From NCBI GenBank assembly GCA_964568075.1, contig CAZMOM010000015.1, positions 7,385 through 71,384 on the forward strand: 64,000 nucleotides of DNA. The letters run 5' to 3'. Made by a program: the position numbers and the translations under genes. Each line of letters starts with the position of its first letter. Position 1 is the stretch's first letter. Positions 37,082 through 62,000 of this stretch are shown piece by piece. The DNA comes from an uncultured Gammaproteobacteria bacterium (GTDB taxonomy: Bacteria; Pseudomonadota; Gammaproteobacteria; Steroidobacterales; MnTg04). The notes beneath the pieces were generated by a model. It was not told the origin of the DNA, searched no databases, and saw only the letters and a program-made list of their open reading frames with translations.

Positions 37082-38665
37082 ATGACCAGCGTACTTTCAA
37101 AAATCAGCGTGACCGCCAGACGAGCTGCGCGCTCCCAGGACTGGGCAACAGTCGATGCCTGTGCCAATGAAATTCTGCGGCAGGACCAGACCAGTGCCGA
37201 GGGGTATTTTCTGGCCGGGATCGTGCAAAGGGCCGCGGGCAAACCGGCGAAAGCCGCGCAGGCATTCGAAAAAGCGCTGGCGCTGGACGCAGATCGTTAC
37301 GATGCCGCTGTTGAACTGGCCAATCAGTTTTCGATTGCGCGGCGTAACCGTGACGCGGCGGCGCTCCTCGCAAAATACGAGGAGAAACTAGCTAACAGTC
37401 CGATGTATCTGGATCTGGCCGGTACGGTTTATGTAGATATCGGGATGTCCCAGAGAGCCTGGCCTTTGTATCAGAAAGCCACGACGTTGCAACCGGGCGT
37501 CGATCTGTTTCAGGCGAACCTCGCCTCCTGCGGAGTTTATCTCGGCAAAATCAAGGAAGCCAAGGCTATTTACCGGGCCTTGCTGGAGCGATTTCCAGGT
37601 CACCGGCGAAACCATTACCAGTTGTCTCGCCTGGAGACGGCAACGGACGCCACGCATGTGGAACAGATGAAAGAGATCCTGCGCACCAGCGATGACCCGC
37701 CCGACAAGAATGTGTTCATGTATTACGCGATCGGCAAGGAACTGGAAGACCTGGAACAGTGGGACGAGTCGTTCGAGTATTACCAGAAGGCCGGCGACGC
37801 AGTGACCGGTGTCGCTGCCTATGATATCGCCGCAGACATCGCGGTAATCGACAAGATCATCGACGTTTGTAACGCCGAGTGGCTGGCCGATGAGGCAGGC
37901 AGGGGCCCGGCGGATGACTCGGAAAAGACGCCGATATTTATCGTCGGTCTCCCGCGTACCGGTACGACCTTGGCCGAGCGAATCGTTTCCAGCCATACCC
38001 AGGTCGAAAGTGTCGGTGAGACGCAGTTCCTGCAGATGGTGCTACGACGTGAAAGCGGTATCCACAGTGTCGAGAATATGAACCCGGCGATGGTCGAGGC
38101 CGTGGCGCAGAAAGATATGGGCCTGATCGCCAGAGGATACCTGGACGAAGTGCGGTATAGACTCGGCGATGAGCCGATGTTTATCGACAAGCTGCCGTTC
38201 AATTTCCTGTTTCTCGGATTTATTGCCAAGGCGTATCCGAATGCGCGGATTATTCACCTCGGGCGAAATCCGATGGACGCCTGTTTCTCCATGTACAAGC
38301 AGGTATTTACCTGGGCGTACAAATTTTCCTATTCGCTGGAGGGACTCGGTCAGTACTATGTGGCCCATGATCGATTGCGAAATCATTGGCGGGAAGTCTT
38401 GAAAGATCGCATGGTCGAGGTCGAATACGAATCGCTGGTGACCGATCAGGAAGGTCAGACACGTTTCATGCTGGACAAATTGGGTCTGGAGTTCGAGGAA
38501 GCCTGTCTCGATTTCGATAAGAACAAGGCGCCGAGCGCTACGGCGAGTTCTGTCCAAGTGCGGGAAAAAGTCCACAGCCGTTCCATCAATAAGTGGAGCC
38601 GATACGCCAAACAACTGCAGCCGCTCAGGGAATATTTCGAGAGCGCAGGCATTTCGGTTGATTGA
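37082..38665 (+). CDS. TPR-repeat + sulfotransferase domain protein (paralogue 1)
   Basis: N-terminal ~250 aa of TPR-like repeats. C-terminal sulfotransferase with the PAPS 5'-phosphosulfate loop GLPRTGTTL and the 3'-phosphate motif RNPMDACFSMYKQ. Confidence 0.85.
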   Translation: MTSVLSKISVTARRAARSQDWATVDACANEILRQDQTSAEGYFLAGIVQRAAGKPAKAAQAFEKALALDADRYDAAVELANQFSIARRNRDAAALLAKYEEKLANSPMYLDLAGTVYVDIGMSQRAWPLYQKATTLQPGVDLFQANLASCGVYLGKIKEAKAIYRALLERFPGHRRNHYQLSRLETATDATHVEQMKEILRTSDDPPDKNVFMYYAIGKELEDLEQWDESFEYYQKAGDAVTGVAAYDIAADIAVIDKIIDVCNAEWLADEAGRGPADDSEKTPIFIVGLPRTGTTLAERIVSSHTQVESVGETQFLQMVLRRESGIHSVENMNPAMVEAVAQKDMGLIARGYLDEVRYRLGDEPMFIDKLPFNFLFLGFIAKAYPNARIIHLGRNPMDACFSMYKQVFTWAYKFSYSLEGLGQYYVAHDRLRNHWREVLKDRMVEVEYESLVTDQEGQTRFMLDKLGLEFEEACLDFDKNKAPSATASSVQVREKVHSRSINKWSRYAKQLQPLREYFESAGISVD

Positions 38666-38710
38666 GTCTTTGGTGGCGCTGTCGCCGGAAAACGATGTCC
38701 GATTAAGCAC

Positions 38711-40285
38711 GTGAACGACAATCTCTCAAAGGTCAGTGCCATCGCCAGGAGAGCGGCCCAGGCCCGGAACTGGAAGACCGTCAGCGCCTGCGCCGGTAAG
38801 ATACTGCAGCAGGACAGAAAAAGCCCGGAGGGCTATTTCCTGTCCGGGCTGGTGGATAAAGCCGCCAGGCGGGCAGAGAAAGCCAGCGACTCATTTACCA
38901 AAGCGATTACTCTCGACGCCGAGCGTTACGATGCGGCGATAGAGCTGGCCGGTCAGTATGCGATATTGCTACGCCATGACGAGGCGCTCGACTTGCTGCA
39001 GCAATATGAGTCACGCTTGGGTAACAGCCCGCTCTACCTCGACATGGCTGCGACCACCTATACGAGGCTCGGATTGCACGCACAGGCCGGGCCCTTGTAT
39101 CAGAAGGCCAACGAGCTGCAACCAGGCATCGATCTGTTTCAGGCAAACCTCGCCGCTTGTTCCGTGTATCTGGGTAAGATCGAAGAAGCGAAAGCCATCT
39201 ATCGAACTCTGCTGGAGCGACACCCTGACCATCAGAGAAATCATTACCAGTTGTCTCGCCTGGAAAGGGCGAGTGACACGGCGCACGTGGAGCAGATGCA
39301 GAAAAGTCTTGATTCGACCAAGCTGCCGGCGGAAAAAAACATCTTCATGTATTACGCGATCGGCAAGGAGCTTGAGGATCTGGAGCGATGGCAGGAGGCG
39401 TTTCACTATTACAAACTGGCCGGCGATGCGGTGGCCGGCGTGGCCAACTACGATGTCGGCAACGATATCGAGGTGATCGACAAGATTATCGAGGTTTGCG
39501 ATGCCGACTGGCTGTCCAGCGGGAATGCAAGACCACGATCGGACGACCCACGAAAAACCCCGATTTTTATTGTGGGCCTTCCACGTACGGGTACGACCTT
39601 GACCGAGCGAATCGTTTCCAGCCACTCACAGGTCGAAAGCGCGGACGAAACATTTTTCATGCAGATACTGGTTCAGCGTGTCAGCGGAACCAATAGCAGA
39701 GAAAACATCAGCCCGGCGATAATCGCGGCGGCGGCGAAACAAGATATTGCACGCATTGCCAAAGGGTATCTGGATGCGGTGGATTACAGACTCAGCGACC
39801 GACCAATGTTCATTGACAAACTTCCTGAGAATTTCTTGTATCTCGGATTCATAGCCAAAGCCTTTCCCGATGCGCACATTATCCACCTCCGGCGAAATCC
39901 GCTGGATGCCTGCTTCGCCATGTATAAACAATCTTTTTTCAAGTTCGCCTACACGCTGGAAAGTCTGGGTAAATATTACGTGGCTTACGATCGTCTTCAT
40001 CATCACTGGCGAGAGGTTCTAAAGGATCGCCTGATCGAAATCGAATACGAATCGCTGGTAGCGGATCAGGAGGGCCAGACCAGAGCGCTGCTGGACAAGC
40101 TGGGTCTGGATTTCGAGCAAGCGTGCCTCGATTTCGACCAGAACAAGGCCCCCAGCGCCACCGCGAGTTCGGTGCAGGTACGCGAAAAGGTCCATAGCCG
40201 ATCGGTCAACAAGTGGAAAAATTTCGCCAGCGAATTGCAGCCTCTGAAGGATCAGCTTGAAAAAGCCGGCATCTCAGTGAACTAG
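38711..40285 (+). CDS. TPR-repeat + sulfotransferase domain protein (paralogue 2)
   Basis: GTG start. Full-length collinear paralogue of 37082-38665 (GLPRTGTTL, RNPLDACFAMYKQ, identical ..NKAPSATASSVQVREKVHSRS..). Confidence 0.85.
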   Translation: MNDNLSKVSAIARRAAQARNWKTVSACAGKILQQDRKSPEGYFLSGLVDKAARRAEKASDSFTKAITLDAERYDAAIELAGQYAILLRHDEALDLLQQYESRLGNSPLYLDMAATTYTRLGLHAQAGPLYQKANELQPGIDLFQANLAACSVYLGKIEEAKAIYRTLLERHPDHQRNHYQLSRLERASDTAHVEQMQKSLDSTKLPAEKNIFMYYAIGKELEDLERWQEAFHYYKLAGDAVAGVANYDVGNDIEVIDKIIEVCDADWLSSGNARPRSDDPRKTPIFIVGLPRTGTTLTERIVSSHSQVESADETFFMQILVQRVSGTNSRENISPAIIAAAAKQDIARIAKGYLDAVDYRLSDRPMFIDKLPENFLYLGFIAKAFPDAHIIHLRRNPLDACFAMYKQSFFKFAYTLESLGKYYVAYDRLHHHWREVLKDRLIEIEYESLVADQEGQTRALLDKLGLDFEQACLDFDQNKAPSATASSVQVREKVHSRSVNKWKNFASELQPLKDQLEKAGISVN

Positions 40286-48408: not shown

Positions 48409-50664
48409 CTACGCCATGAACGGCTCCGCACGTTTGATAAGCTCCTCCAGGCCAGGCTCGTTCTGGTTTCGCGGTTTGCCGGGATGAATGATGGCGACCT
48501 GACAGAGTTCGGCTGCCTCGACGAGGTCTTTGAAAGTACCGGCATCGAGGTCCTTGATGTACGCCTGTTTGTTTTCATCGTAGGCAAACATTCGGTCGTT
48601 TTTGTTGGTGCACTCATCACAGGTGGTGCAGCGGGGCGTATCGATGTAAGGGTCGTCTGAAACCGCAGGCAAAGCAGCCTCTGCAGGGGTATCCGGTTCC
48701 CTCGCGTCCTCCGTGACCGCTGGCACGGTCACGGCCTCGACGGGCTGCGAATGATCCGCCTGCGCAGGCTCTGCCCTGATCGCCTGGATCTGTTTCTCTT
48801 TTTCTTTTTCCCAGGCGATCCGTTCCTTCAAGAGCAATGCAGACGCGTACGAATTATTGACGCCGCCCTGCTCCTGAAGCACACGCCAGCGATCGCCGCA
48901 GCGGCGCGCAATGCGAATCAAATTGTCGTCAACGACCAGCCGCCGCAAAATATTGCTGCCATTGACGACCGACACATAAGGAACCTTGCCGAAAGTCTCG
49001 TCGTCCGCCAGATCCAGGTAATCTGCGACCGGTAGCATATCGTCGTTCCAACTTTCTCTCGGGGCCGATGCAAAGTATTCGCTATACCGCGAATCGGTGA
49101 CCGCAAAGTCGACCAAGGTAAAGGCCTGCTCCTCGGTGACCGTTTGCAGGTCTTCATCCTCGAAGCGAAGTTCCCTGTGCGGCCAGGTTGCCTCGATCTC
49201 GGGATTGCTGCTTATGCTAAAGCGATCCGCCAGGCCGGGGCCGGCCGCCGGATCGTAACTGAATGCCGGAAACACCCGCGACTCCATTGCCGCGGCGGCT
49301 ATCAAGTAAGCCGGAAGGCCCGTCGTGGGTTGGGTGCGGCCTGAAAAAATGCTGAAGATCGCCGGCCCGCTGAATTCCAGCCCTTTCCTTATCTCTTCTT
49401 TTTTCTGGTACAGATTGGAACTTGCAGACTGCAGCACATAAGCGTTGCCCGGCGCAACGAATGTGCTGGCCAATTGCCGCACGAACCCGTCGTGATGCAG
49501 TTTCCTGTCGACAGACGCCGGCTCGCCAAGCACATCGCTCACTTGCAACAAAACCTTCATCGGCAGGTCTGACGATGCGATCTCCATCAACCGCGCCGTA
49601 TCCCGCAAATCACACTCACGCTCATCCAGACAGATCAGATACGACGGAAACAGCGCCAGGTCGGCCGGTGCCAGAGCCTGCACGCCGAAGCGATCGAAAT
49701 AGGCTGCGTGCTTCCGTTCACGATAGGCGTTCTCGCATTCGAGTTCTGCGACAGCGACGGCCTTGATGACTTTCGCTATTTCGGGCAGGCGATCGTTATA
49801 GGCTTTCAGCGCGCCAGACGCGCTGTTGAAGTCGAATCGATACTGCGTGCCATCTTGCCTGCGTTTCTCGCGACCGCCCGGCGCAAAAAATTTCTGTGAC
49901 TCCAGAACCGAAAGTGCGGACCCGACTCGGCGCCGCCGGTCAGCCGGCAACCTGTTTTGTGGAGTTGCGTCATTCAAAAGTTCGGACATCAGCTCGAAAT
50001 CAAACGCCTCCTGGTAACGCCTGCCCAGCGTTTGCTTGATTCTTTTCGGTGTTCGCGCCCGCCCGGATTTCAGGTCGTCGACCTTGAGAATGTTGCGCAG
50101 TCTGATGATCAGCGTGTTAATTTGTTCGAACGATTTTCGTGTGCGCCGTGCTTCAACGTTCGCCCAGGCGTGCTGCAGCAACAACGAGGGCAAGCGGTCG
50201 TCACAGTCGACAACCCGTCCGTCTAACCTGAGCGCGAAGCGCGCAGTGGCCAGACTGTCTTTGAGTAACTCGGCCTCGGACTTCTCACATTCGGCCAACA
50301 GAGACTTCTCCGCATGATCCCAGAGCCTGGCCAGGGATGATTCGAAGCCATCGGCAACCAACCCGCGCATTCTGGTCTCGAGCCGAAGCACATGGTGGCG
50401 AAGTTGTGCACCTGCGTTGCCCTCAGGCGCAATCTCCCGCAGCAGTCGACCCATCACACCCGAAAGCGTATCCAGGAACGCGTGGCTATCGCCGTCATCG
50501 AGCAGTATCAATGGATAGTCGTAGCGCAGTTTTGACAGCTGTTGATATGGCGCCAGCAGTGCCGGGCAAATATCGCGCGGCATGGTATCCCCGACTTCGC
50601 TGTCACGGCGCTTACCGGTCAGGTGGAAGTGAATCATTTCCTGCATTTCCACGCTCACGGCCAT
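48409..50664 (-). CDS. 751-aa protein: uncharacterised N-terminal region + degenerate PFOR TPP-domain-like region + C-terminal single-cluster ferredoxin
   Basis: The ATG abuts the korB stop (TAGATG). aa ~338-600 align by eye to the C-terminal part of the PFOR encoded at 59041-62613 in this window, but lack GDG...N. The C-terminus is CTTCDEC...C (C-x2-C-x2-C...C). Confidence 0.8.
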   Translation of the reverse strand: MAVSVEMQEMIHFHLTGKRRDSEVGDTMPRDICPALLAPYQQLSKLRYDYPLILLDDGDSHAFLDTLSGVMGRLLREIAPEGNAGAQLRHHVLRLETRMRGLVADGFESSLARLWDHAEKSLLAECEKSEAELLKDSLATARFALRLDGRVVDCDDRLPSLLLQHAWANVEARRTRKSFEQINTLIIRLRNILKVDDLKSGRARTPKRIKQTLGRRYQEAFDFELMSELLNDATPQNRLPADRRRRVGSALSVLESQKFFAPGGREKRRQDGTQYRFDFNSASGALKAYNDRLPEIAKVIKAVAVAELECENAYRERKHAAYFDRFGVQALAPADLALFPSYLICLDERECDLRDTARLMEIASSDLPMKVLLQVSDVLGEPASVDRKLHHDGFVRQLASTFVAPGNAYVLQSASSNLYQKKEEIRKGLEFSGPAIFSIFSGRTQPTTGLPAYLIAAAAMESRVFPAFSYDPAAGPGLADRFSISSNPEIEATWPHRELRFEDEDLQTVTEEQAFTLVDFAVTDSRYSEYFASAPRESWNDDMLPVADYLDLADDETFGKVPYVSVVNGSNILRRLVVDDNLIRIARRCGDRWRVLQEQGGVNNSYASALLLKERIAWEKEKEKQIQAIRAEPAQADHSQPVEAVTVPAVTEDAREPDTPAEAALPAVSDDPYIDTPRCTTCDECTNKNDRMFAYDENKQAYIKDLDAGTFKDLVEAAELCQVAIIHPGKPRNQNEPGLEELIKRAEPFMA

Positions 50665-51633
50665 CTACTCCACCGGCCAGATCGTAAATTTGTCCAGCTC
50701 TTCGTTCAGCCCTTTCCTGATGAGCGCCGGCGTATACAGCCGATCCGGCTTGCGAAGATCCTCATAGCAGGGCACATCCGGATTGCGGTAAATGATGCCA
50801 ACCGGCAGGTGCTCGCTGGTGCCGACAATTCGTCTGGCCTCGACAAGATCGGCAGGGTCGTGCTGATCCTGATGCCGGTAGACGCGCGACAGCGCGGGCG
50901 ATAGCTCGATGCCGTTTTCGTGGGTCAGTATCAGCAGGCGATCCGGATTTTGTATGCACGGCTCCCAGCGATCCTCCAGGAACTCGGGACATCGCTGCAG
51001 GATACGTATAAAGGAGAATCCGTGATGCTTGTGCGCCGCGGAGATAATTTTGTAAAGCAGCTCCGGAATCCAATCGACAACCTGGGCGACGAAAGACAAA
51101 TTCGACATACCGAGTGTCGCCTGCAAGGGATCAAACGCCTCGAGATCCGAGCCACGCGGTGTCGTGTTGCTGCGCGTTCCTTTCGGTGACGTCGGTGATA
51201 CCTGATTCTTGGTCAGACCATAGATGTTGTTGTCGTGCATCATGACGGTCATGTTCATGTTGTAACGCGTCGCATGTACCCAATGCGCGGTGCCGATACT
51301 GCAGCAATCACCGTCGCCCATATTGACAAATACGTGCAGGTCCGGCCGGCGCATTCTAATGCCTTCCGCAACAGGGAGCGCGCGACCATGCAGCCCGTGG
51401 AAGCCGTAGGTGCCCATGTAGTGAGGAAAGCGGCTGGAACAGCCGATACCCGAAACAAATACGGTTTTCTCCAGCGGCAGTTGCTCATCGCGGCAAACCC
51501 GCTGCACGGCGGCAAGGATGGCGAGATCGCCGCAACCGGTACACCAGCGCGGCACACGCCCTGCGTAGTCCTCGAGGCTGTGTTCTTCCTGGCCTGCGTG
51601 TCGTAAGAATTCCGTAGCCCGAACTACCATCAC
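50665..51633 (-). CDS. korB: 2-oxoacid:ferredoxin oxidoreductase beta subunit (TPP-binding)
   Basis: ..WCTGCGDLAIL.., ..GIGCSSRF.., and the TPP motif ..NMGDGDCCSIG...N. 4-bp overlap with korA. Confidence 0.92.
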   Translation of the reverse strand: MMVVRATEFLRHAGQEEHSLEDYAGRVPRWCTGCGDLAILAAVQRVCRDEQLPLEKTVFVSGIGCSSRFPHYMGTYGFHGLHGRALPVAEGIRMRRPDLHVFVNMGDGDCCSIGTAHWVHATRYNMNMTVMMHDNNIYGLTKNQVSPTSPKGTRSNTTPRGSDLEAFDPLQATLGMSNLSFVAQVVDWIPELLYKIISAAHKHHGFSFIRILQRCPEFLEDRWEPCIQNPDRLLILTHENGIELSPALSRVYRHQDQHDPADLVEARRIVGTSEHLPVGIIYRNPDVPCYEDLRKPDRLYTPALIRKGLNEELDKFTIWPVE

Positions 51634-53510
51634 TGCAACCTCTCACGAATTACGCGTTCTACCGTGCCGGGTTTTATCGGTTGTTCACCCACTTCGCCCC
51701 AGCAGTCGATATCGACCAGACAACGTGCCCGCAACAACCAGGCGAGATTCGAGTAGCGGCGATTTTCCTCATCGATCAATTCGTCATCCAGAGAATCCGC
51801 CCAGTTATTCTCGACCGCCAGGACCTTGTCGAATCGCTGTAGTATCTCTTTGATGCCGGACGCCAGCGGCTGCAGGATTCTGAGGTGCAACGACGACACC
51901 TTGTGGCCATCGGCGCGTACCCTTTGTACGGCCTCTTCGATCGCGCCCCGTGTGCTGCCCCAGCCGACGACGAGCAGTTCACCCTTGTCATCACCAAACA
52001 CCGGCGGCGTTTTGATAGTTTTTTGCAGCGCCGCGAGCTTCAGACTACGGTGCCTGATGCCTTCCTTGTTGATTTGCAGGTCGTAGGCTACGCAGCTCCG
52101 GCGATCATGTGCGAGGCCCGTCACTGTGTGCATACCGTTTGGCTGCCCTGGGATGACACGCTGCCGCTGGCCGCTGCGCTGATCCCAGTCGTACGGAAGA
52201 TCTCCATTGACCACGGGGCTTTGATCGACAGGCGGCGCCAGCCAGTCGTCGCTGGCCTCCGGTCGCGGAAACGGTTGTTGCGCTGTTGCGAGACTGGCAT
52301 CGGACAGCAGCACAACGACTGTGTTGAAGGTCTCTGCTATTTTTCGGGCGGTGATGACTGAATAAAAACAGTCCTCGATATCGCTTGCGGCCATAACCAC
52401 TTTCGGGGCATCTCCGTGACTGCCGAAACAGGCGGTCAGCAGGTCGCCCTGTTCGGCTTTCGTCGGTTGCCCGGTGGACGGGCCACCACGCTGGACATCG
52501 ATCACCACCAGCGGTATCTCCGCCATTACGGCAAGACCGATACATTCCTGCTTTAACGAGTAACCCGGCCCCGACGTGATCGTCAACGCACATTTGCCCG
52601 CATAGGATGCGCCAATCGCGAACGCACATGCAGCGATCTCATCCTCAGCCTGGTGCACGACGCCGCCGACCTTTTCGAAAACGTCGCACAGATAATGTGA
52701 TGCCGAGGTGGCCGGCGTGATGGGGTACATCGCACAGACTTCCATACCCGAGGCCATGACACCGAGAGCCATAGAAGTGTTTCCGTTGACAACGATGTTC
52801 GGTTCCTTGGGCGGCGTCGCCTGTATCTTGAACTTGATGTCCAGGTTGTGCTCGGCCCATGCGAAACCCGCGTTGAGCAGTTTTTGGTTGGCGGAGATGA
52901 CAAGATCGCCTTTCTTGCCGAATATGAATCGGATCTGCTCGCGGGCCGCATCCATGTCCAGACTGTAAACACTGCTCAGCAGGCCGAGTACAAACATGTT
53001 CTTGCCGCGGCGAGCATCGCTGACGACCTTGAGGCACTCGACTTCCATGGGAATCTCGTAAACCTTGAATCCGCGCTCGATCAGTTCGTCGTACACGCTG
53101 ACGTACGACGCCGCAATCGACGGGCCATCGTCGCTGCGCCACTTGTCTTCGAGGAGAATAATGCTGCCGGGTTTGAGTTCGTCGGCCCGCAATCGACCGA
53201 GAAGCACCTGATCATTGAATGCCACCGTGAGATCGACTTCGTCGCCGCCATTGGTTACCCGGTGGTTTGCTACGCGAATTCGATTTCCGCTGGCCCCGTC
53301 GATGCTGCGTGCCGGCGGCTGAATTTCAGCCGGGATGATTTCCACGGTCCAGATTCCGTAGCCCAGCCGTGCCGCGATAGCGCCAAAGGACTGACCGCAT
53401 TTCTGCGCCCCTTCACCTGAGTCGCTGAGTATCTCGACGATGTGTTCGTCAATCTCCATCGCCGGCTTCCTGCCCGGCGTTGTCATCCCTTTCTGTCTCG
53501 TTACCGGCAT
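51630..53510 (-). CDS. korA: 2-oxoacid:ferredoxin oxidoreductase alpha subunit
   Basis: 626 aa, typical KorA (..GEGAQKCGQSF.., ..AMYPITPATS.., ..AEDEIAA..). An alternative start at 53459 (ATG with AGGAAG upstream) is possible. Confidence 0.92.
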   Translation of the reverse strand: MPVTRQKGMTTPGRKPAMEIDEHIVEILSDSGEGAQKCGQSFGAIAARLGYGIWTVEIIPAEIQPPARSIDGASGNRIRVANHRVTNGGDEVDLTVAFNDQVLLGRLRADELKPGSIILLEDKWRSDDGPSIAASYVSVYDELIERGFKVYEIPMEVECLKVVSDARRGKNMFVLGLLSSVYSLDMDAAREQIRFIFGKKGDLVISANQKLLNAGFAWAEHNLDIKFKIQATPPKEPNIVVNGNTSMALGVMASGMEVCAMYPITPATSASHYLCDVFEKVGGVVHQAEDEIAACAFAIGASYAGKCALTITSGPGYSLKQECIGLAVMAEIPLVVIDVQRGGPSTGQPTKAEQGDLLTACFGSHGDAPKVVMAASDIEDCFYSVITARKIAETFNTVVVLLSDASLATAQQPFPRPEASDDWLAPPVDQSPVVNGDLPYDWDQRSGQRQRVIPGQPNGMHTVTGLAHDRRSCVAYDLQINKEGIRHRSLKLAALQKTIKTPPVFGDDKGELLVVGWGSTRGAIEEAVQRVRADGHKVSSLHLRILQPLASGIKEILQRFDKVLAVENNWADSLDDELIDEENRRYSNLAWLLRARCLVDIDCWGEVGEQPIKPGTVERVIRERLQ

Positions 53511-53520
53511 TGTTCAGTTC

Positions 53521-55023
53521 CTATGCCACACGAATACGAACACGCGATCGTTCCGTCGAGTCGATTCCGAATATCCTGGCTTCGCTGCCGTTTTGCGCTC
53601 GCTTATAGACCGCTTCGGTGTCGCGTATACCGAGATAGGCCTTCATGCTGTGCGCCGCCTGCCGCCCTGTCCCCATTGCCAGAATTACTGTTGCGGCGCC
53701 AGTCACGATATCGCCGCCGGCGTATACGCCTGCCATCGAGGTGGCGAGATTGTCATCGACCTCTATGTAGCCCCATTTGTTTAGTGCGATCTTTGACGTC
53801 TGGCCGATAATCGGATTGGCATTGGTGCCGATCGCATAGACCACCGTGTCGACTTCGAACTCGAAGTCACTTCCTTTTATCGGTACCGGACGGCGCCGGC
53901 CCGAATCGTCGGGTTCACCGAGTTCCATGCGCTGGCAGCGCATCGCGCGCACATTACGCTCGCCATCGCCGAGTATTTCAACCGGCGCGGTAAGCCACTC
54001 AAACTGTATGCCTTCCTCTTCGGCATGATCGATTTCTTCGTCCCTCGCAGGGCTCTCGTTTCGTGTGCGGCGATAGACGCAGTACACCTGCTCAGCCCCG
54101 GCCCGCAACGACACACGTAAGGCATCCATGGCGGTATTGCCGGCGCCGATCACCGCAACGCGTTTGCCGAGGCCCAGCGGAGTGTCGTAGGCGGGAAATT
54201 CTGTGGCGCCCATCAGGTTACAGCGGGTCAGCAGTTCGTTCGCCGAAAGCACACCATTCAGCGATTCGCCGCCGATTCCCATGAAACTCGGGTAACCCGC
54301 CCCGGTGCCGATGAAAACGGCGTCGAAGCCGAGTTCGTCCAGCATTTGTTCAATGGTGAACAACCTGCCGACCAGTGTATTGCACTCGATCCTGACGCCA
54401 AGCCTCACCAGATTCTCGATCTCACCATCGAGCACGTCGTTCGGCAAGCGAAATTCGGGGATGCCGTAGCGCAATACGCCGCCGGCCTGATGCAACGCTT
54501 CGTAGATCGTGACGTCGCAGCCGGCTTTGGCCATGTCCGCTGCGCAGGCCATCCCCGCGGGCCCCGAACCGACGATGCCAATTTTGAGCCCATTGGGTTC
54601 TATATAAGGCGTGTTATGCCACCCCTCGGCGATAGCCATGTCGCCAACCCAGCGTTCGAGCCGGCCGATGGCCACCGGCTCCAGCCTGTCGCCGACCGGA
54701 CATACTCCTTCGCACTGATCTTCCTGCGGACAGACTCTTCCGCAGATCGCCGGCAGCAAAGTAGACTCGGTCAGGATGTCATAGGCGCCGCGGTAGTCTT
54801 TTTCGCAAATCTTGACGATAAATCCGGGAATATCGATATTGACCGGGCACGCCGGGACACACAGTGGATTCGGACAAACGAGGCAACGCTCGCATTCGAT
54901 CAGTGCATCCTCGAGGCCGTAGCCGAGCGTCACCTCATCGAAATTTCTGGCCCGCACCGCCGGCTCCTGGGCCGGCATGCGGGCGCGGTCCTGCGGAATA
55001 TTCCGTATGGTTTTTTTTGCCAT
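53521..55023 (-). CDS. NfnB/GltD-like NAD(P)H-dependent FAD/Fe-S oxidoreductase (glutamate synthase small-subunit family)
   Basis: N-terminal Cys clusters (..CERCLVCPNPLCVPACPV.., ..CGRVCPQEDQCEGVCP..), the dinucleotide motifs GIVGSGPAGMA and VIGAGNTAMD, and ..GVYAGGD... Confidence 0.9.
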   Translation of the reverse strand: MAKKTIRNIPQDRARMPAQEPAVRARNFDEVTLGYGLEDALIECERCLVCPNPLCVPACPVNIDIPGFIVKICEKDYRGAYDILTESTLLPAICGRVCPQEDQCEGVCPVGDRLEPVAIGRLERWVGDMAIAEGWHNTPYIEPNGLKIGIVGSGPAGMACAADMAKAGCDVTIYEALHQAGGVLRYGIPEFRLPNDVLDGEIENLVRLGVRIECNTLVGRLFTIEQMLDELGFDAVFIGTGAGYPSFMGIGGESLNGVLSANELLTRCNLMGATEFPAYDTPLGLGKRVAVIGAGNTAMDALRVSLRAGAEQVYCVYRRTRNESPARDEEIDHAEEEGIQFEWLTAPVEILGDGERNVRAMRCQRMELGEPDDSGRRRPVPIKGSDFEFEVDTVVYAIGTNANPIIGQTSKIALNKWGYIEVDDNLATSMAGVYAGGDIVTGAATVILAMGTGRQAAHSMKAYLGIRDTEAVYKRAQNGSEARIFGIDSTERSRVRIRVA

Positions 55024-56100
55024 TCAGGTCAAACCTTTCTTCCAGTTGTCCAGCGCGCGCGCCTCGTCGCTACGGAAGCGTCCCAGCCGACTCATCAGGT
55101 CATCGAAATCGACCTTGTGGGCATCGAACTCCGGACCATCGACACAAGCGAATTTGATTTCGTCACCCACCGTTACCCGGCAACCACCACACATCCCGGT
55201 ACCATCGACGACGATCGGATTCATGCTGACGATGGTCTCAATCTTATACGGCCGCGTCGTCTCGGCACAGGCCTTCATCATGATCGGTGGACCGATCGCA
55301 ATGACCCGATCGACATCGGCGTGTTTGTTGAGCGCCGCTTCCAGACCCAGCGTCACCCGACCTTCGATACCGGCCGAACCGTCATCGGTACAAATGATGA
55401 GTTCATCGCAGTACCGCTCGAATTTTTCCTGCCAGAAAATCAGCTCTTTGGAGCGAAATCCGACCACACCGATCACATAGGCGCCGCTGTCCTTGAACGC
55501 CCGAAGTTGCGGGAATATCGGGGCAACGCCAAGGCCGCCGCCAACACAGACGACCTTTTTGGTGCCGAGTTCACCGGGATATCCCATCGGACCGACGAGA
55601 GCATGAAAATGTGTACCTGCCTGACAACGCCGCTGCATCTCAAAAGTGGATTTGCCGACCGCCTGGACAACGAGCGTAATCGTGCCCTTGTCGCGATCGA
55701 AATCAGCGATGGTCAGCGGTATGCGTTCCCCACGCTTGTGCAAAATGACGATGACGAACTGGCCGGGTTTCGCCGCTTTGGCGAGTAACGGCGCAGCGAC
55801 TTCGAGGAGAAACGTGATATCCGAGAAATCTTCGCGGGCGACAATTTCGAAGCCGCTGTCGTCGTCCGGCTCTACGGACTCCCGGCATGCCCGGCTACTC
55901 CGCAACTGCTCCCGCGCGTCGGTAATTTTCCGTCGCAATGCGGGCAAGACGGTGTCTCGTGCCACTTTAGCCTCTTCCAAATCCTGAGTGTGCAGCGAGC
56001 GGCGCAGGTCATACCCCAGCGCCCCGCGGAGCGTCCGCGGCACCGCAACCTTCACCCACCAGGTCTGGTCACGCTTGAACAGGTATTTGGCGTCTTCCAT
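55024..56100 (-). CDS. NfnA/SudB-like ferredoxin-NADP reductase subunit carrying an 83-aa foreign N-terminal extension (integrase arm-domain-like)
   Basis: From aa 84 onward it matches the NfnA pattern (..AKPGQFVIVILHKRGERIPLTIADFDRDKGTITLVVQAVGKST.., and a C-terminal ..CGGCRV...FACVDGPEF.. 2Fe-2S site). No start codon exists at the homology boundary. aa 1-62 resemble a tyrosine-integrase N-terminus. Confidence 0.85.
   Translation of the reverse strand: MEDAKYLFKRDQTWWVKVAVPRTLRGALGYDLRRSLHTQDLEEAKVARDTVLPALRRKITDAREQLRSSRACRESVEPDDDSGFEIVAREDFSDITFLLEVAAPLLAKAAKPGQFVIVILHKRGERIPLTIADFDRDKGTITLVVQAVGKSTFEMQRRCQAGTHFHALVGPMGYPGELGTKKVVCVGGGLGVAPIFPQLRAFKDSGAYVIGVVGFRSKELIFWQEKFERYCDELIICTDDGSAGIEGRVTLGLEAALNKHADVDRVIAIGPPIMMKACAETTRPYKIETIVSMNPIVVDGTGMCGGCRVTVGDEIKFACVDGPEFDAHKVDFDDLMSRLGRFRSDEARALDNWKKGLT
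55915..56100 (-). mobile_element. remnant of a tyrosine-integrase 5' end (arm-type DNA-binding / DUF6538-like N-terminus) fused in frame to the nfnA-like gene
   Basis: MEDAKYLFKRDQTWWVKVAVPRTLRGALGYDLRRSLHTQDLEEAKVARD.. follows the pattern [YL]-x-K/R-R-x-x-T-[YW]-[YW]-x-[RK]-[IV]-x-VP-x-x-L-R...G...[IL]-x-x-SL-x-T-x-D-x-x-EA that I recall for integrase N-termini. No integrase catalytic domain follows. Confidence 0.5.
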
Positions 56101-56148
56101 CCGTTCTGGCCTGCCTGCCGGATTTCCGCTGGGCCGTGCCCAAAAACC

Positions 56149-56253
56149 TGTACCTTTTCGTATCGTACGTTGTGTACCTTACGATGCGTACAATCGGGAA
56201 CGGCCTGTTGGTTTCCGATTTTGTACCTTTCCCACCATGACCCAAACTGTACC
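56149..56253 (+). repeat. four same-orientation TGTACC(TT) repeats upstream of the chimeric gene
   Basis: TGTACCTT at 56149, 56173 and 56222; TGTACCGG at 56248. The second copy lies in the loop of a 9-bp hairpin (56159-56167 / 56180-56188). Confidence 0.6.
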
Positions 56254-56554
56254 GGTTGAATATACGCATATTCCGCATGTGCCCAATCGAAGACCGCCCA
56301 GACAGTGGCGCGTCGAAACAAGAGCAAAATGGCGCTCTGGCCCCGAAAGCGGAGATTTGGCGGGCTGTTTTCGACCAGGTCGATCAGGTCTGCTTACGAC
56401 CCTAAACGGACATTCGTCACCAGAAGGCAACAAGCTCTCACGTTACACCCCGCGCTTCGATTTGACGTCGATCGAACTGAGTGTTCTAGTCCTTAATTCG
56501 AGCAAATTTGCTCTTTCGACTCTGGGCCGTCTACTAATCGTAATAACCCTGTGC

Positions 56555-57223
56555 ATGAATCGTCTCGTTTCACTGTCTTCTGTCGCGCTAGTGCTTGCAA
56601 GCGGCGTCGCGGGGGGCCAGGACAATGGAAGCTCAGAATTCAGCGTGTATCAGGTCGACTCCGCGGGCTCTGACATTCGATTGTTGATACATCGAGCTGG
56701 CGTTCTTTCCCGGTTCGGACATAGCCATGTAATCTCGGTCGGACAGCTAGTCGGCACGATCTATGTGCACCCCGACCTCGAGCAGTCACGCTTTGAGTTG
56801 GAAATTCCGGTGCATGGATTGATCGTGGATGACCCACTTCTTAGACGCGAGGAGGGGGACGAATTTTCCACCGAACCATCGAAACATGATATTGCCCGCA
56901 CACGCAGCAACATGCTCGGCAAGCGGGTACTAAAGGCCAAACAGTATCCGATCGTCAAGCTCACTGGGACAGGGCCCAGGGGCGACGCGCCGGAGTTCGT
57001 GCTCGAATTGACCATTGAGCTTCTGGATAATGTCGTCGAATTACGGGTTCCATCTACTGTGCGGCTGGACGGGGATATATTGGAAGCGACGGGCGCCTTT
57101 CGGCTCAGCCATAGTGACCTGGGCATACGGCCATTCAGCGCGATGTTGGGAGCGCTTCGTGTCGCCGATGAAATAGATTTCAAGTATCGCATCCGAGCGC
57201 AACGGATACGGGCGAAGGACTAG
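56555..57223 (+). CDS. YceI-family periplasmic protein
   Basis: ATG at 56555 gives the signal peptide MNRLVSLSSVALVLASGVAGG. YceI-like ..FGHSHVI.. and a beta-barrel pattern follow. The 189 upstream in-frame codons of the ORF-track frame are rejected. Confidence 0.7.
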   Translation: MNRLVSLSSVALVLASGVAGGQDNGSSEFSVYQVDSAGSDIRLLIHRAGVLSRFGHSHVISVGQLVGTIYVHPDLEQSRFELEIPVHGLIVDDPLLRREEGDEFSTEPSKHDIARTRSNMLGKRVLKAKQYPIVKLTGTGPRGDAPEFVLELTIELLDNVVELRVPSTVRLDGDILEATGAFRLSHSDLGIRPFSAMLGALRVADEIDFKYRIRAQRIRAKD

Positions 57224-57507
57224 CGGCGATGATGGTTAATTGCCGAGCGCTCTTTTATTAGCAATCCTTCCTCAATTGGCCCGTCCCTGATGAAGAGCTT
57301 CACTTCCTCATCCCCGAGGAGGTCGTTCACTCTTGATAACTGTCATTTGACGACAGCCTGTGCCTGAAGGGCACCAAAAACTCCGTAAACCTGGGAACGG
57401 CGACCACATGGACCTCCCAGCGCATTATCGCGCTAAAGTCAGGTGTCCACGAAACCGAAACAAGATTAGAAAGCGGACGATGTGGGCTCCGAATGATCGG
57501 CGACGGG

Positions 57508-58815
57508 CTAAAACTCGAGATACCGGGTTGGCCTTTCTCTGAACCATTTGGTGACCACCCACTTTTCACCCTGCTCAACAGGATCGCCGCCATGCAGGCT
57601 GCGGTCGTCCACCTGGCCATTCTCGAGACAATTCCTGAACCACAGGGTGCTGCCAGCCAAGGGCGGTACCGTCAGGTTCAATCTTGGAAAACTGGTACCG
57701 CCTCCCGCCGACGGCGAAGCCAGATAGGTCACAGCGGAGACCGTTCTCTGCCCACCATCCTCCATGAACCCTTGGGATACGGTGAGCTTTGGATCGAAAT
57801 AATCGACGTGAGGCCGATAGCACTCTCCGGGGGCGTAATGCAGAATCGACATCGGCTCGGAAAACATCAGATCCTCACCGGTTTGACGGATAATTTTCAG
57901 CTCAACGCAGCGACCGATGATGTCGACTATCCCAAACGGGAGATAGGTGGACATATTGGTACGAACGTCCGAGACCATACCGCCCCTTTGGCTGTCGGGA
58001 TCGATCACATTTGCGCGCTTTAAAAAGGGGCGTGAGAGAAAGATGAGGTACGCACAATCGACGACATTCAAGACGTCATTGAACAGGGTGATGGCCGGGT
58101 CTGCACTCACAACCTGGTGATCAACCATCGGTGATTCTGGATAGAGTGAAAAGGACGCCCCCAATTCGCTCCTCTCTTCAGGGAGTTGCGGGGGCCGGGC
58201 AGCCTGTACGCCTTGATACGGCACCAGCAGCGTCTCGGCAAACGGATATTGCGCACCGGCGGCGCGCTGCAACCAGTGCACGGCCTCTTGCTCCGCGCCC
58301 TCGCCGCCCCAGCCCTGCAATAGACACCAACCCAGGTTGAAACTCGAAACCGGATCACCGCCCTGAGCGGCTCGCCGAAGGCAGTCAATGGCCATGTTTC
58401 TGCTTGATGCATGCTGCATAGCCAGGTATCCAACGGCCCTGAGCGCGAGAACAAAGTGCGCTTCTGCCGCCATCAGGAGTAAGTCGCTGATGAGACTATT
58501 GTTGGCGGGTCCCCGTTGCGACTTATACAACAGTTCCGCTTTGCGGTAGGCCGCCTGGCTGGAACCTCCTTCGACAGCCCGATCGTAGTGCGCCAGCGCC
58601 GCGACATAATCTTGCGGAATTCCCAGGCCCTTTTCGTAACAATGCCCGAGCGCGTCCAGCGCATCTGGAAGACCTTTGGCGCTCGCCTGCAGCAACCAAT
58701 GGATCATGCCTTCGACGTCTCTGTTCTGAAGGCAGATCTGGCTCAATAGAAACTGCGATTCGAGCTGACCGCCTTCGGCCTTGGCACGTAGTTGTTGGAT
58801 TTGCATCGTAGACAT
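57508..58815 (-). CDS. Sel1-repeat + prolyl 4-hydroxylase-like 2OG-Fe(II) oxygenase
   Basis: N-terminal Sel1/TPR-like repeats (..LGHCYEKGLGIPQDYVAALAHYDRA..). The C-terminal P4Hc has H-x-D (..YRPHVDYF..), a distal His (..SLHGG..) and ..KWVVTKW... Confidence 0.8.
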   Translation of the reverse strand: MSTMQIQQLRAKAEGGQLESQFLLSQICLQNRDVEGMIHWLLQASAKGLPDALDALGHCYEKGLGIPQDYVAALAHYDRAVEGGSSQAAYRKAELLYKSQRGPANNSLISDLLLMAAEAHFVLALRAVGYLAMQHASSRNMAIDCLRRAAQGGDPVSSFNLGWCLLQGWGGEGAEQEAVHWLQRAAGAQYPFAETLLVPYQGVQAARPPQLPEERSELGASFSLYPESPMVDHQVVSADPAITLFNDVLNVVDCAYLIFLSRPFLKRANVIDPDSQRGGMVSDVRTNMSTYLPFGIVDIIGRCVELKIIRQTGEDLMFSEPMSILHYAPGECYRPHVDYFDPKLTVSQGFMEDGGQRTVSAVTYLASPSAGGGTSFPRLNLTVPPLAGSTLWFRNCLENGQVDDRSLHGGDPVEQGEKWVVTKWFRERPTRYLEF

Positions 58816-59040: not shown

Positions 59041-62000
59041 TTAGCCGGCGGGCTGAAATTTCGCAGGTTCCTGCTTGGCCATGTGCTCGTAGGTCTGCCA
59101 GCGTAACTCCACGAGTTCCTGTGCACTCTGCATTAACTTTTCCGCTTCTTCTGGATTGGTTCGCGTCAAAATCTTGTAACGCATCTCGTTGTAAGCGTAT
59201 TCCTTGAGTGGAATGCTCGGGCGTGGCGAATCCAGGACCAGCGGTTTCTTGCCCGCTGCACGCAGCGCCGGGTTGTAACGAATCAGCGGCCAGTAGCCGC
59301 TGGCCGCCGCCAGCTTTTGCTGTCTGAGGCCATCGGCCATGTCATAGCCATGGGCGATGCAGTGGCTGTAGGCGAGAATCAGCGAAGGACCCTGATACTC
59401 CTCCGCCTCACGCATGGCGAGCAGAGTCTGCTGTGAATTTGCCCCCATCGCGACCTGGGCGACATAGACGTTACCATACGAGATCGCCTGCAAGGCCAGA
59501 TCTTTTTTGCCGCTGCGTTTACCGGCGGATGCGAACCGGGCGGATGCGCCCAGCGGAGTCGCCTTGGACATCTGACCGCCCGTATTGGAATACACCTCGG
59601 TATCGAGCACCAGTACGTTGACATTGCGGCCGCCGGCCAATACATGATCCAGTCCACCGGCTCCGATGTCATAAGCCCAGCCGTCACCGCCCACCAGCCA
59701 GATACTGCGGCGGACCAGGTGATCGACGATGGAAAGCAACGCGGCAGCTTTATCGTTATGGTCCTGGTCGCACATTCGACGCAACTGGATTTTGAGGCGT
59801 GCGACTCTTCGCCGCTGGGCTCGAATCTCGCTGCCGACGCGCTGACTGGCGTTGACGAGTTCATCGGCGAACTGCGCACCGATCTGCAGCTCAAGTTCCA
59901 TGACGAGCCGCTTCGCGATTTTCATGTGGTGGTCGGCGGCGATGCGCATACCGAGACCAAACTCGGCGTTGTCCTCGAACAGGGAATTCGACCAGGCTGG
60001 TCCGCTGCCCTCCCTGTTCTTACTCCACGGAGTGGTCGGCAGGTTGCCGCCGAAGATGGACGAACAACCGGTGGCATTGGCGACCAGCAGTCGCGGACCA
60101 AACAGCTGTGACAGAAGCTTTATATAAGGAGTCTCGCCGCAGCCGGCGCAGGCGCTGGAGAATTCGAACAGCGGCTCCAGGAACTGGGCGCCGCGAACCG
60201 AGGAAAAATCCACTTTCGCACGATCGCTGAACTGAAGGCTCTCGAAAAACTCGACATTGGTCTTGCCCTGTTCGAGCAGCGGGGCCTTATCGGTCATATT
60301 GATCGCGCGCACCTGTTCATCGTCGGGACTTCGCACGGGGCAGGCATCGACACAGAGGTTGCAACCGGTACAGTCCTCCGGATACACCTGCAGCGTATAG
60401 CGCGTCTCGGGAAAACCGCGGGCGCTGATCGGCGCGGATTGAAATCCCTGCGGCGCATCATCCAGTACGCTCTCGTGATAAAACTTGGCGCGGATGACGC
60501 TGTGCGGGCAGACGAAGCCGCAATTACCGCACTGTATGCATAGATCTGGCTCCCAGGCAGGTACGCGGTCCGAGACATTGCTCTTCTCCCAGCGTGCTGT
60601 GCCGCTGGGGAAAGTGCCGTCGACCGGCAGCTTGCTGACGGGCAGGTCGTCGCCGTGGCCGCGCATCATTGCTGCCGTGACCTCGCGCACGAACCGGGGC
60701 GCCTCGCTCGGCACAACCTCGTCGAGCGGACGCGTGCTGCTGATGGTGCCGGTGATCTCGACTGCGCACAGATGATCGAGCGCCGCATCAACGGCCGCGA
60801 AGTTCTGATCGATGACGGTTTGACCCTTGGCGCGGTAGGTTTTTTCGATCGATTTCTTGATCTGCCGGATAGCTTCAGCACGCGGCAGCACGTCGGACAG
60901 GGCGAAGAAGCAGGCTTGCATGACCGTGTTGATCCGTTCGCCCATACCGGCTTCCCGCGCGACGCTGGAGGCATCGATAACATGGAACCTGATACCACGA
61001 ATCACGATCGCTTCCTGCACCGGCTGCGGCAGCTTGTCCCAGACCTCGTCCGCTGAATAAGGACTGTTGAGCAGGAATACCGAGCCGGCGGCAGCGTTTC
61101 GCAGCACTTCGATTTTTTCGATCAGGTTAAATTGGTGACAGGCGATGAAGTTCGCCGACTGGATCAGATAGGGCGCGTGGATCTGCTCGGGCCCGAAGCG
61201 CAGATGCGAGACAGTCTGTGAACCTGATTTCTTCGAGTCGAAGACGAAGTAGCCCTGGCAGTAGAGATCCGTATTCTCGCCGATGATCTTGATGCTGTTC
61301 TTGTTGGCGCCGACCGTACCATCGGAACCCAGGCCGAAGAACAACGCCCGGGTGACCTCATCGCTCTCGATCTCGAATTTCGGGTCGTAGTCGAGGCTCG
61401 TGTGGGTAACGTCGTCGTGGATCCCGATCGTGAAATGATTTTTTGGTTGCGGCTTGCCGAGTTCATCGAAAATCGCCTTGACCATGGCCGGCGTGAATTC
61501 CTTCGATGACAAGCCATAGCGACCACCGATTACCTTTGGCATCGACTCCAGGCGGCCGTCGCCCGCCGCTTCGGCCAGTACCGTAACCACGTCCTGGTAT
61601 AGCGGCTCCCCGCTGGCCCCGATTTCCTTGGTTCGATCGAGCACCGCGATCGATCGGGCCGCACCGGGAATAGCCGCCAGCAGGTGCTCGGCCGAGAACG
61701 GGCGATAAAGTCTGACGTTGACCAGGCCCAGCCCCTGTTCCGGTAACGCGTCGATCGTCTGCATCACGGTGTCGGCGCCGGAGCCCATGAGAATGATGAT
61801 GCGCTTCGCCTCCGGGTCGCCGTGGTAGTCGAACAGCCCGTACTGCCGGCCCGTCAGTTCGGCGAAGCGGTCCATCGTCTGTTGCACGATTCGCGGAGTC
61901 ACTGCGTAGAACCGGTTGACGCTCTCACGCGCCTGAAAGTAGACGTCCGGGTTCTGAGCGGTGCCGCGGATGAACGGATTATCGGGGTTCAGCGCACGCT

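Follow-up and report, generated by a model that had tools for sequence, protein, structure and literature searches.

A ferredoxin-tailed, PFOR-derived protein lacking the thiamine diphosphate motif and encoded directly behind korAB: a probable partner of two-subunit 2-oxoacid:ferredoxin oxidoreductases

Described systems and the locus under study

Two-subunit 2-oxoacid:ferredoxin oxidoreductases (OFORs) of the KorAB type, for example the 2-oxoglutarate:ferredoxin oxidoreductase (OGOR) of Magnetococcus, have no built-in ferredoxin module. Here, we analyzed a window of 64,000 nucleotides from an uncultured gammaproteobacterium (GenBank assembly GCA_964568075.1, contig CAZMOM010000015.1, forward-strand positions 7,385 to 71,384), in which five head-to-tail genes on the minus strand, nfnA-like, nfnB-like, korA, korB and a final open reading frame (ORF) at 48409-50664, follow one another with gaps or overlaps of 0-10 nt. 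A scaffold from a marine metagenome contains a stretch identical to the window. The protein of this last ORF, which we label X, has 751 residues (749 if translation begins at a GTG at 50658) and is, as read from its translation, a derivative of pyruvate:ferredoxin oxidoreductase (PFOR) without a thiamine diphosphate (ThDP) site and with a C-terminal ferredoxin domain. Functionally, X may be compared with the delta subunit of other OFORs (PorD, KorD or OorD) and with domain V of PFOR, Fe-S modules that connect the ThDP-proximal cluster to an external acceptor. The likeness is one of analogy and not of homology: the delta subunit and domain V hold two [4Fe-4S] clusters packed rigidly on the enzyme, whereas X has a single cluster of the ferredoxin I type on a flexible tether.

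A related pairing is known from Azoarcus evansii. Its 2-oxoglutarate:NADP+ oxidoreductase (KGOR), the subject of a 2003 study by Ebenau-Jehle et al. that appears as reference 46 of PMC10134865, is reported to combine a KorAB-type enzyme with an Fe-S flavoprotein related to GltD/NfnB, the two being jointly encoded and copurified, and to reduce NADP+ directly at the expense of 2-oxoglutarate. That enzyme, however, consists of three subunits, without an NfnA-like subunit or an 83-kDa PFOR-derived subunit. The NfnA- and NfnB-like proteins of the window are close homologues of free NfnAB with all cluster cysteines in place (NfnB-like protein against T. maritima NfnB, 4YLF_B, E = 5e-157, and against P. 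furiosus NfnI, 5JCA_L, E = 1e-148). While free NfnAB takes ferredoxin as a substrate, the window genes are tied to an OFOR and a tethered ferredoxin within a single operon, and the NfnA-like protein bears a DUF6538 extension.

X itself has no counterpart in curated collections. Its body gave no Pfam match (E up to 5, 33 aligned members, with Fer4_13 alone recurring) and no NCBIfam match, and members of the family are labelled 'hypothetical protein' or 'ferredoxin' in the source databases. We likewise found no description of X in the full-text literature, although most subscription journals lie outside that coverage and the result is therefore absence of evidence only. The sequence-only reading from which we started knew of no characterized protein with this architecture, and neither a curated family nor a paper has come to light that would say otherwise. 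Among published candidates, AadN of R. palustris (PMC9973337) was rejected as an equivalent of X, being a fused NfnAB. A 'PFOR-like' gene co-regulated with korAB in a Riftia symbiont (PMC11636981) could be a relative. Reverse operation of Rnf to feed a 2-ketoglutarate:ferredoxin oxidoreductase and PFOR has been proposed for Ignavibacterium (PMC3362086).

Homology of X to PFOR and loss of the cofactor motifs

Pairwise comparison alone did not reveal the kinship of X with single-chain PFOR. As an internal comparator we used the canonical NifJ-type PFOR encoded outside the operon but within the window (59041-62613, minus strand; TIGR02176, 1718 bits). The best high-scoring segment pair in BLASTP joined X 396-538 to PFOR 1037-1157 at 22% identity and was not beyond chance by itself (E = 1.2), and the X family profile scored the same protein at 6 bits (E = 1.5e-4, single target). 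Against PDB sequences, both phmmer and the family profile returned ferredoxin I as the sole match and no PFOR. X is nonetheless a PFOR homologue, since intermediate sequences and the predicted fold agree. The short-X (A1) profile matched two ferredoxin-tailed PFORs with intact motifs at 316 bits (Persicobacter) and 265 bits (Gemmatirosa). In the former case 300 bits fell on X 278-746 against residues 1151-1629, a region that spans the Pfam TPP_enzyme_C match at 1213-1326. PFOR-like proteins of rnf operons were matched by the same profile at 145 and 109 bits. These tailed PFORs, themselves uncharacterized, are the closest relatives of X; they are full length with intact motifs, whereas X is a degenerate derivative.

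A second line of evidence comes from long members of the X family (1236-1460 aa), of which X corresponds to the C-terminal half. Their N-terminal halves are degenerate versions of domains I-III, colinear with the window PFOR, with PFOR_II as the only domain recognized by Pfam. A profile built from ten long forms matched the PFORs in the PDB (D. africanus, D. vulgaris-type and M. thermoacetica) position by position across domains I-III at E ~2e-20; the N-terminal half of one long form (P0244), used alone as the query in a homologue search, returned no matches. An hhalign comparison of the X family against a 70-sequence KorB alignment gave no match (probability 0.2%), so that on sequence evidence the kinship of X is with single-chain PFOR and not with KorB.

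Structure prediction gave a concordant picture. The AlphaFold2 model of full-length X (mean predicted local distance difference test score, pLDDT, 78.9; predicted template modelling score, pTM, 0.72) retrieved PFOR chains as its top 15 Foldseek matches in the PDB (best E = 5e-4, probability 1.0), followed by OFOR beta subunits and other ThDP enzymes. A model restricted to aa 280-640 and built from 13 sequences was poorer (pLDDT 68, pTM 0.40) and retrieved mostly ThDP enzymes, all of them weakly (E 0.05 or worse). In a MAFFT alignment of the window PFOR, the intermediates and X, every residue pairing that the sequence-only reading had drawn by hand reappeared (GNAYVLQ/GNVYVAQ, DSRYSEYF/NEMRYKIL, DRWRVLQEQ/LRWQTYEHM, LICLDERECD/LVGGDGWAYD and LQVSDVLGEP/LDTEVYSNTG), including that of the X segment FPAFSYDPAAG with the window PFOR. 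The hand alignment thus stands with intermediates, and fails only as a pairwise match of statistical significance.

Taken together, the profile matches, the long forms and the Foldseek ranking bear out the descent from the PFOR ThDP domain and C-terminal arm that had been read from the letters, but the extent of the relationship is greater than was then supposed. X is equivalent to domains IV-VII, with residue N of X falling near residue N+640 of PFOR. Its first ~330 residues, in which nothing had been recognized, indeed match no model in the Pfam and NCBIfam libraries; they are nevertheless colinear, by way of the long-form profile, with domains IV and V and the start of domain VI. Against Persicobacter PFOR this stretch gave weak colinear matches (X 25-122 with 755-866 and X 143-207 with 992-1056), which fall inside strong long-form alignments of 239 and 270 bits. 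We accordingly describe aa 1-290 (49795-50664, minus strand) as a helical relic of domains IV, V and the beginning of VI, marked by an invariant LRYDYP at aa 46-51 and a relic Cys154. The adjoining aa 291-635 (48760-49794) form, by profile, Foldseek and multiple alignment, a degenerate ThDP-binding (PP) domain with a clade-specific C-terminal extension of beta hairpins and a long helix. With the single-chain NifJ enzymes (1B0P, 6CIN and the window gene) X shares this ThDP fold, the colinear order of domains IV-VII and the motifs (G)N.YV.Q, GP(A/S)L, P(A/L)..Y(D/N)PA and RY. It differs from them in having neither GDG...N nor cluster ligands, in lacking domains I-III in its short form, and in carrying a clade-specific insertion of ~40 aa, the long helix, a linker and a ferredoxin.

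Loss of the cofactor sites extends through the family, for which column statistics were taken over 257 members, 253 of them covering the ferredoxin tail. At the position of the ThDP/Mg2+ motif (aa 343-382; 49519-49638, minus strand), X aligns LICLDERECD...KVLLQVSDVLGEPA in place of GGDG...VLDTEVYSNTGGQ; the core of the motif reads CLDER...QVSDVLGE in X, while KorB and the intact relatives retain GDG...N. The absence of the GDG and N/GG ligands had been noted for the window protein alone, and in fact both are missing across all 257 members, with positions 345-349 variable and D377 kept in 79%. The ligands of the PFOR clusters have fared no better. In the ThDP-proximal set CxGC...C...C, only C154 survives, aligned to the second cysteine of the domain-VI CxGC, and the equivalent of Cys1071, the last ligand of that cluster, is S, A, T or V across the family. 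The first CxxCxxCxxxCP of domain V falls in a gap of X immediately after LRYDYP, which aligns to the conserved stretch preceding the first cluster, and the second domain-V motif stretch (Persicobacter 872-992) has no counterpart in X. Judged by the alignments, then, the whole family has lost the ThDP/Mg2+ motif together with the ligands of all three PFOR [4Fe-4S] clusters. The short form also begins at the domain-IV equivalent and hence lacks the pyrimidine-binding (Pyr) domain, domain I; the Pyr domain of KorA has an intact KorB of its own. From the lost GDG...N and the missing Pyr domain together it follows that X should be unable to bind ThDP in the canonical manner. That X is PFOR-derived and ThDP-less is, in our judgment, hardly in doubt. 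By descent it belongs to the PFOR superfamily, and it retains none of the features on which catalysis in that superfamily depends; its place beside genes for alpha and beta subunits would suit a pseudoenzyme serving as an accessory or electron-carrier subunit of an OFOR. A role as the catalytic beta subunit was ruled out, the neighbouring KorB being intact.

In contrast to the body, the tail has kept its metal ligands. A single-cluster ferredoxin at the C-terminus had been proposed from the letters, and the prediction held: aa 672-730 (48475-48651, minus strand) contain CTTCDEC (aa 679-685) and CQVAIIHP (aa 721-728), and Cys679, 682, 685 and 721 occur without exception (253/253 members). Over its full length the tail can be aligned with D. 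africanus ferredoxin I (1DAX; E = 1.6e-4 by sequence, 6e-5 by profile) through the common pattern CxxCxxC...C(P/Q), although in X it is one domain within a chain of 751 aa. The fourth cysteine is followed by Gln in 196/257 members and by Pro in 52/257. Pfam Fer4_13 was found in 33/33 aligned members; the window tail scores 20.1 bits (E = 1e-3), below the cut-off of 24.5, and other members 28-35 bits. We conclude that the tail is a predicted single-[4Fe-4S] ferredoxin of the Fer4_13 / D. africanus ferredoxin I type. It is joined to the body by a low-complexity, presumably flexible linker (aa 636-671; 48652-48759, minus strand; pLDDT below 50 for aa 636-684), which across the 253 members is 18-88 aa long (median 38) and consists to 52% of Ala, Glu and Pro.

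At its other end, X follows korB without an interval. The junction reads gtg gag tag atg gcc gtg agc, with an ATG directly after the korB stop TAG, as the sequence-only reading had it. Gene callers and homologues favour the GTG two codons downstream, which lies 9 nt behind a GGAG and yields 749 aa beginning MSVEMQE; a protein of 100% identity (P0001) was likewise called as 749 aa. Whichever start is taken, X abuts korB. An artefact of ORF calling was ruled out, as X is kept in hundreds of genomes.

Gene neighbourhoods, partner genes and descent of the family

The X family is large. A profile search of 1.84 billion representative proteins yielded at least 2813 clusters at 50% identity, and a scan of one genome per GTDB species found relatives in at least 555 species. 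These include Woeseiaceae, which hold the nearest genomes, other Gamma-, Beta- and Alphaproteobacteria, Myxococcota, Nitrospiraceae, Thermoleophilia, Gaiellaceae, Acidimicrobiia and Chloroflexia. To quantify synteny, we used the best-scoring 80 of the at least 555 loci together with four from metagenome or genome contigs (84 in all), taking as denominators those loci with enough upstream DNA. In these, korB lay immediately upstream of X in 78/78 testable loci and korA upstream in 67/67; ahead of korAB, an NfnB-like gene was present in 54/54 and an NfnA-like gene in 50/50. The loci span Pseudomonadota, Myxococcota, Nitrospirota, Actinomycetota and Chloroflexota, and the DNA flanking the five genes is unrelated from one locus to another. 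Conservation of X beside korAB, on which the sequence-only reading had made its proposal depend, is thus observed throughout the testable loci, and the NfnAB-like genes are kept in the subfamily of the window.

The best-scoring 80 loci represent that subfamily. Further out, korAB also adjoins X in all of the distant contexts sampled (L085-L089, L091 and L092), but the remaining company changes. Distant members occur in a second architecture, korA-korB-X-rnfB-PFOR-like-rnfCDGEA, in which X is either a long form or ~840 aa in length; this context rests on L087, L088, L089 and L092, plus L094 for the intact relative. The link to NfnAB is specific to one X subfamily, and other members pair with Rnf. 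Two recurrent architectures therefore differ in their ferredoxin:NAD(P)+ oxidoreductase, soluble Nfn in one and membrane-bound Rnf in the other. Since this component varies while korAB is kept, KorAB is the constant partner.

The KorB of the window (50665-51633, minus strand; TPP_enzyme_C and PFO_beta_C domains) is a beta subunit with intact catalytic motifs, GDG106...DNN and the four conserved cluster cysteines Cys31, 34, 65 and 215. KorA (51630-53510, minus strand) is a fused gamma-alpha subunit (TIGR03710, OAFO_sf, 501 bits, above cut-off) whose nearest solved structure is the two-subunit Magnetococcus OGOR (6N2N_A, E = 4e-84). By similarity only, the substrate is probably 2-oxoglutarate. 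The NfnB/GltD-like flavoprotein (53521-55023, minus strand) has Fer4_20 and Pyr_redox_2 domains and eight conserved cysteines for two predicted [4Fe-4S] sites, and the NfnA/PyrK-like gene (55024-56100, minus strand) encodes a FAD/[2Fe-2S] subunit (NF004862, 370 bits, above cut-off; DHODB_Fe-S_bind and DUF6538). The DUF6538 match (E = 1.6e-9) covers an N-terminal extension of ~80 aa (55861-56100, minus strand) that is foreign to canonical NfnA. L002 and L003 have the same extension, and its presence at loci of Woeseiaceae, Myxococcota and Acidimicrobiia is suggested by tblastn matches spanning ~355 aa. It could serve in docking.

Upstream of the operon, 1.4 kb (56101-57507) showed no Pfam-recognizable ORF, Rfam family or consensus promoter in our scans. 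Beyond it, between the operon and the NifJ-type PFOR, a gene at 57508-58815 (minus strand) encodes a 435-aa protein with Sel1 repeats and a C-terminal 2OG-Fe(II) oxygenase domain. The closest genome (L005) is more compact here, with only ~580 nt between the nfnA-like gene and the PFOR gene upstream of it. The start of the NifJ-type PFOR in the window is overlapped by 4 nt by a gene (62610-63929, minus strand) for a 439-aa Pyr_redox_2 flavoprotein with a C-terminal 2x[4Fe-4S] domain (Fer4_21), so that the second OFOR of the window appears to be paired with an NAD(P)-type flavoprotein/ferredoxin module of its own. Unrelated to X, two tandem paralogous genes at 37082-40285 on the plus strand each encode ~525 aa with TPR and sulfotransferase (Sulfotransfer_3) domains, and genes for TonB-dependent receptors flank the pair.

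The origin of the tail can be traced through the intact relatives, which were found by tblastn against plasmid records. The PFOR of Persicobacter psychrovividus plasmid pPP1 has 1629 aa (L093:5548-10437) and that of Gemmatirosa kalamazoonensis plasmid 1 has ~1675 aa (L094:6311-11335). Both retain GGDG...DTQVYSNTGGQ, the cluster cysteines and the domain-V motifs, and from their sequences both are presumably active enzymes. Both also share with X the C-terminal extension, the Ala/Glu/Pro linker and the single-cluster ferredoxin tail. Their genes directly precede rnfC-D-G-E-A, the order in Gemmatirosa being korA-korB-rnfB-(intact tailed PFOR)-rnfC-D-G-apbE-rnfE/A; this PFOR-Rnf arrangement in cultured Persicobacter and Gemmatirosa is apparently undescribed. 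Contrary to the sequence-only reading, the ferredoxin was not newly fused to a dead domain, because tail, linker and extension already occur on catalytically intact PFORs in rnf operons. Loci with a long or mid-length X contain, in addition, a second PFOR-like protein of 1531-1542 aa between rnfB and rnfC (L092:15178-19806 and L089:4733-9328), in which the domain-V cysteine motifs are kept, the ThDP motif is partly degenerate (GGDA / GQAG) and the ferredoxin tail is absent.

These gene arrangements suggest a series from PFOR through long X to short X. It may have begun with an intact, tail-bearing PFOR inside a kor/rnf cluster. Duplication and subfunctionalization would then have given a tail-less PFOR-like protein alongside a dead, tail-bearing long X, and loss of domains I-III would finally have produced the short X, with Rnf replaced by Nfn.

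Proposed function of X and its alternatives

The strict linkage to korAB makes it quite probable that X is a partner of KorAB. We lean, by a narrow measure, toward a more specific model, drawn from synteny and anatomy, in which X is a subunit of KorAB without catalysis of its own and passes electrons, by its tethered ferredoxin, to ferredoxin:NAD(P)+ modules. Its degenerate PFOR body would provide a docking surface that anchors X on intact KorAB, and its [4Fe-4S] domain would act as a mobile arm, shuttling single electrons to and from the ThDP-proximal cluster of KorB and reaching the ferredoxin site of NfnB in this operon and of RnfB/RnfC elsewhere. The five gene products together might then constitute one 2-oxoacid:NAD(P)+ oxidoreductase. 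Working in reverse, they would make 2-oxoacids at the expense of NAD(P)H, possibly by electron bifurcation, and free ferredoxin would be unnecessary. Physical association with KorAB, the relay itself, its direction and the stoichiometry are all matters that we infer.

Several observations weigh against this model. In L085 and L086, a long form follows korAB with neither nfn nor rnf adjacent. In L085 (1429-14245), the long X has 1414 aa, and the korAB-X genes lie directly behind tal-pgi, zwf and pgl, genes of the oxidative pentose-phosphate pathway, which yields NADPH. The median identity of X is 44%, compared with 66-73% for its partners, which suits a scaffold but would equally suit a dispensable accessory. 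Moreover, a lone pseudo-PP domain would have to dock on the (alpha-beta)2 KorAB without a Pyr partner.

Some of the same evidence can be turned toward a structural, protective or regulatory KorAB subunit, such as a shield against oxygen, a factor in assembly, or a sensor of redox state or O2 that works through the single cluster. X would then not be an obligatory relay, and the electrons of KorB would leave via free ferredoxin. The korAB linkage holds even at the loci without an adjacent nfn or rnf, X diverges fast relative to the catalytic subunits, many hosts are aerobic or facultatively aerobic, and domain VII, at the C-terminus of D. africanus PFOR, is linked to protection from oxygen. Yet the four cluster cysteines and the flexible tether are kept without exception, the sole recurrent extra neighbours are Nfn or Rnf, and the same tail is borne by intact PFORs within rnf operons, so that we consider this explanation unlikely, if worth keeping in mind.

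It is rather improbable that X serves the NfnAB-like or Rnf module, or some other acceptor, as its own ferredoxin without binding KorAB, in which case the synteny would stem from co-regulation only. The resemblance of the tail to a free-standing ferredoxin, and the plain annotation of some members as 'ferredoxin', speak for such a role. A soluble ferredoxin would, however, have no need of the ~670 further well-conserved residues, many of them invariant in the family alignment. Nor would it be expected to abut korB translationally, or to adjoin korB in every testable locus while the Nfn/Rnf partner varies.

We give similarly little credence to a remodelled ex-ThDP pocket with a new ligand or activity (for example CoA/acyl-CoA or nucleotide binding, or allosteric control), which would make X an enzyme or sensor and not a passive scaffold. 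This idea draws on near-invariant residues that have no obvious structural role, namely C154 (95%), H319 (97%), K370 (94%), D377 (79%) and the LRYDYP motif. Against it, active relatives already have K370 and the AELE..Y..E.H motif, which X has inherited, C154 is what remains of the CxGC cluster motif, and no library domain was detected in the body of X. Finally, a chance or compositional resemblance to PFOR, with the ORF an unrelated ferredoxin fusion, would account for the insignificant BLASTP score, the empty hhalign comparison with KorB and the ferredoxin-only PDB profile search, but it is refuted by the 316-, 265- and 145-bit matches, the long forms at E 2e-20, the PFOR chains heading the Foldseek ranking and the recurring MAFFT pairings.

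Returning to the tethered relay, its energetics might permit operation in either direction. If the NfnAB-like pair acts as a genuine NfnAB, the net equation would read 2-oxoglutarate + CoA + NADH + 2 NADP+ <-> succinyl-CoA + CO2 + NAD+ + 2 NADPH. Given the potentials of Nfn and OGOR, this overall reaction should lie near reversible at physiological NADPH/NADP+ and NADH/NAD+ ratios, and the module could thus serve as a source of NADPH, or else make 2-oxoglutarate with no free low-potential ferredoxin involved. The furthest-reaching version, which we offer as a tentative and somewhat doubtful extension, is that the NfnA-like and NfnB-like proteins, KorA, KorB and X form one soluble supercomplex, the tail moving back and forth from the KorB cluster to the NfnB ferredoxin site, with no need for free ferredoxin. 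Flavin-based bifurcation (2 NADPH + NAD+) would directly drive the reductive carboxylation of succinyl-CoA to 2-oxoglutarate, and confurcation in the oxidative direction would yield 2 NADPH per 2-oxoglutarate.

How two-subunit KorAB is wired into the metabolism of aerobes is poorly understood, and the X family is large, uncurated and linked to korAB wherever this was tested; we suggest that it merits a name of its own. For the evolution of pseudoenzymes, it offers a path from an intact tailed PFOR, through a split, to loss of the N-terminal half. If the relay model proves correct, OFOR holoenzymes with X would form a class of their own, new in being coupled to NAD(P)H through a tethered electron carrier; this would bear on CO2 fixation by reductive carboxylation, on NADPH supply and on oxygen tolerance. 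Should the supercomplex exist as well, it would represent a previously unrecognized route to ferredoxin-level carbon chemistry for aerobic and facultative bacteria, including the abundant sediment Woeseiaceae, with the Rnf-linked versions doing the same job at the membrane.

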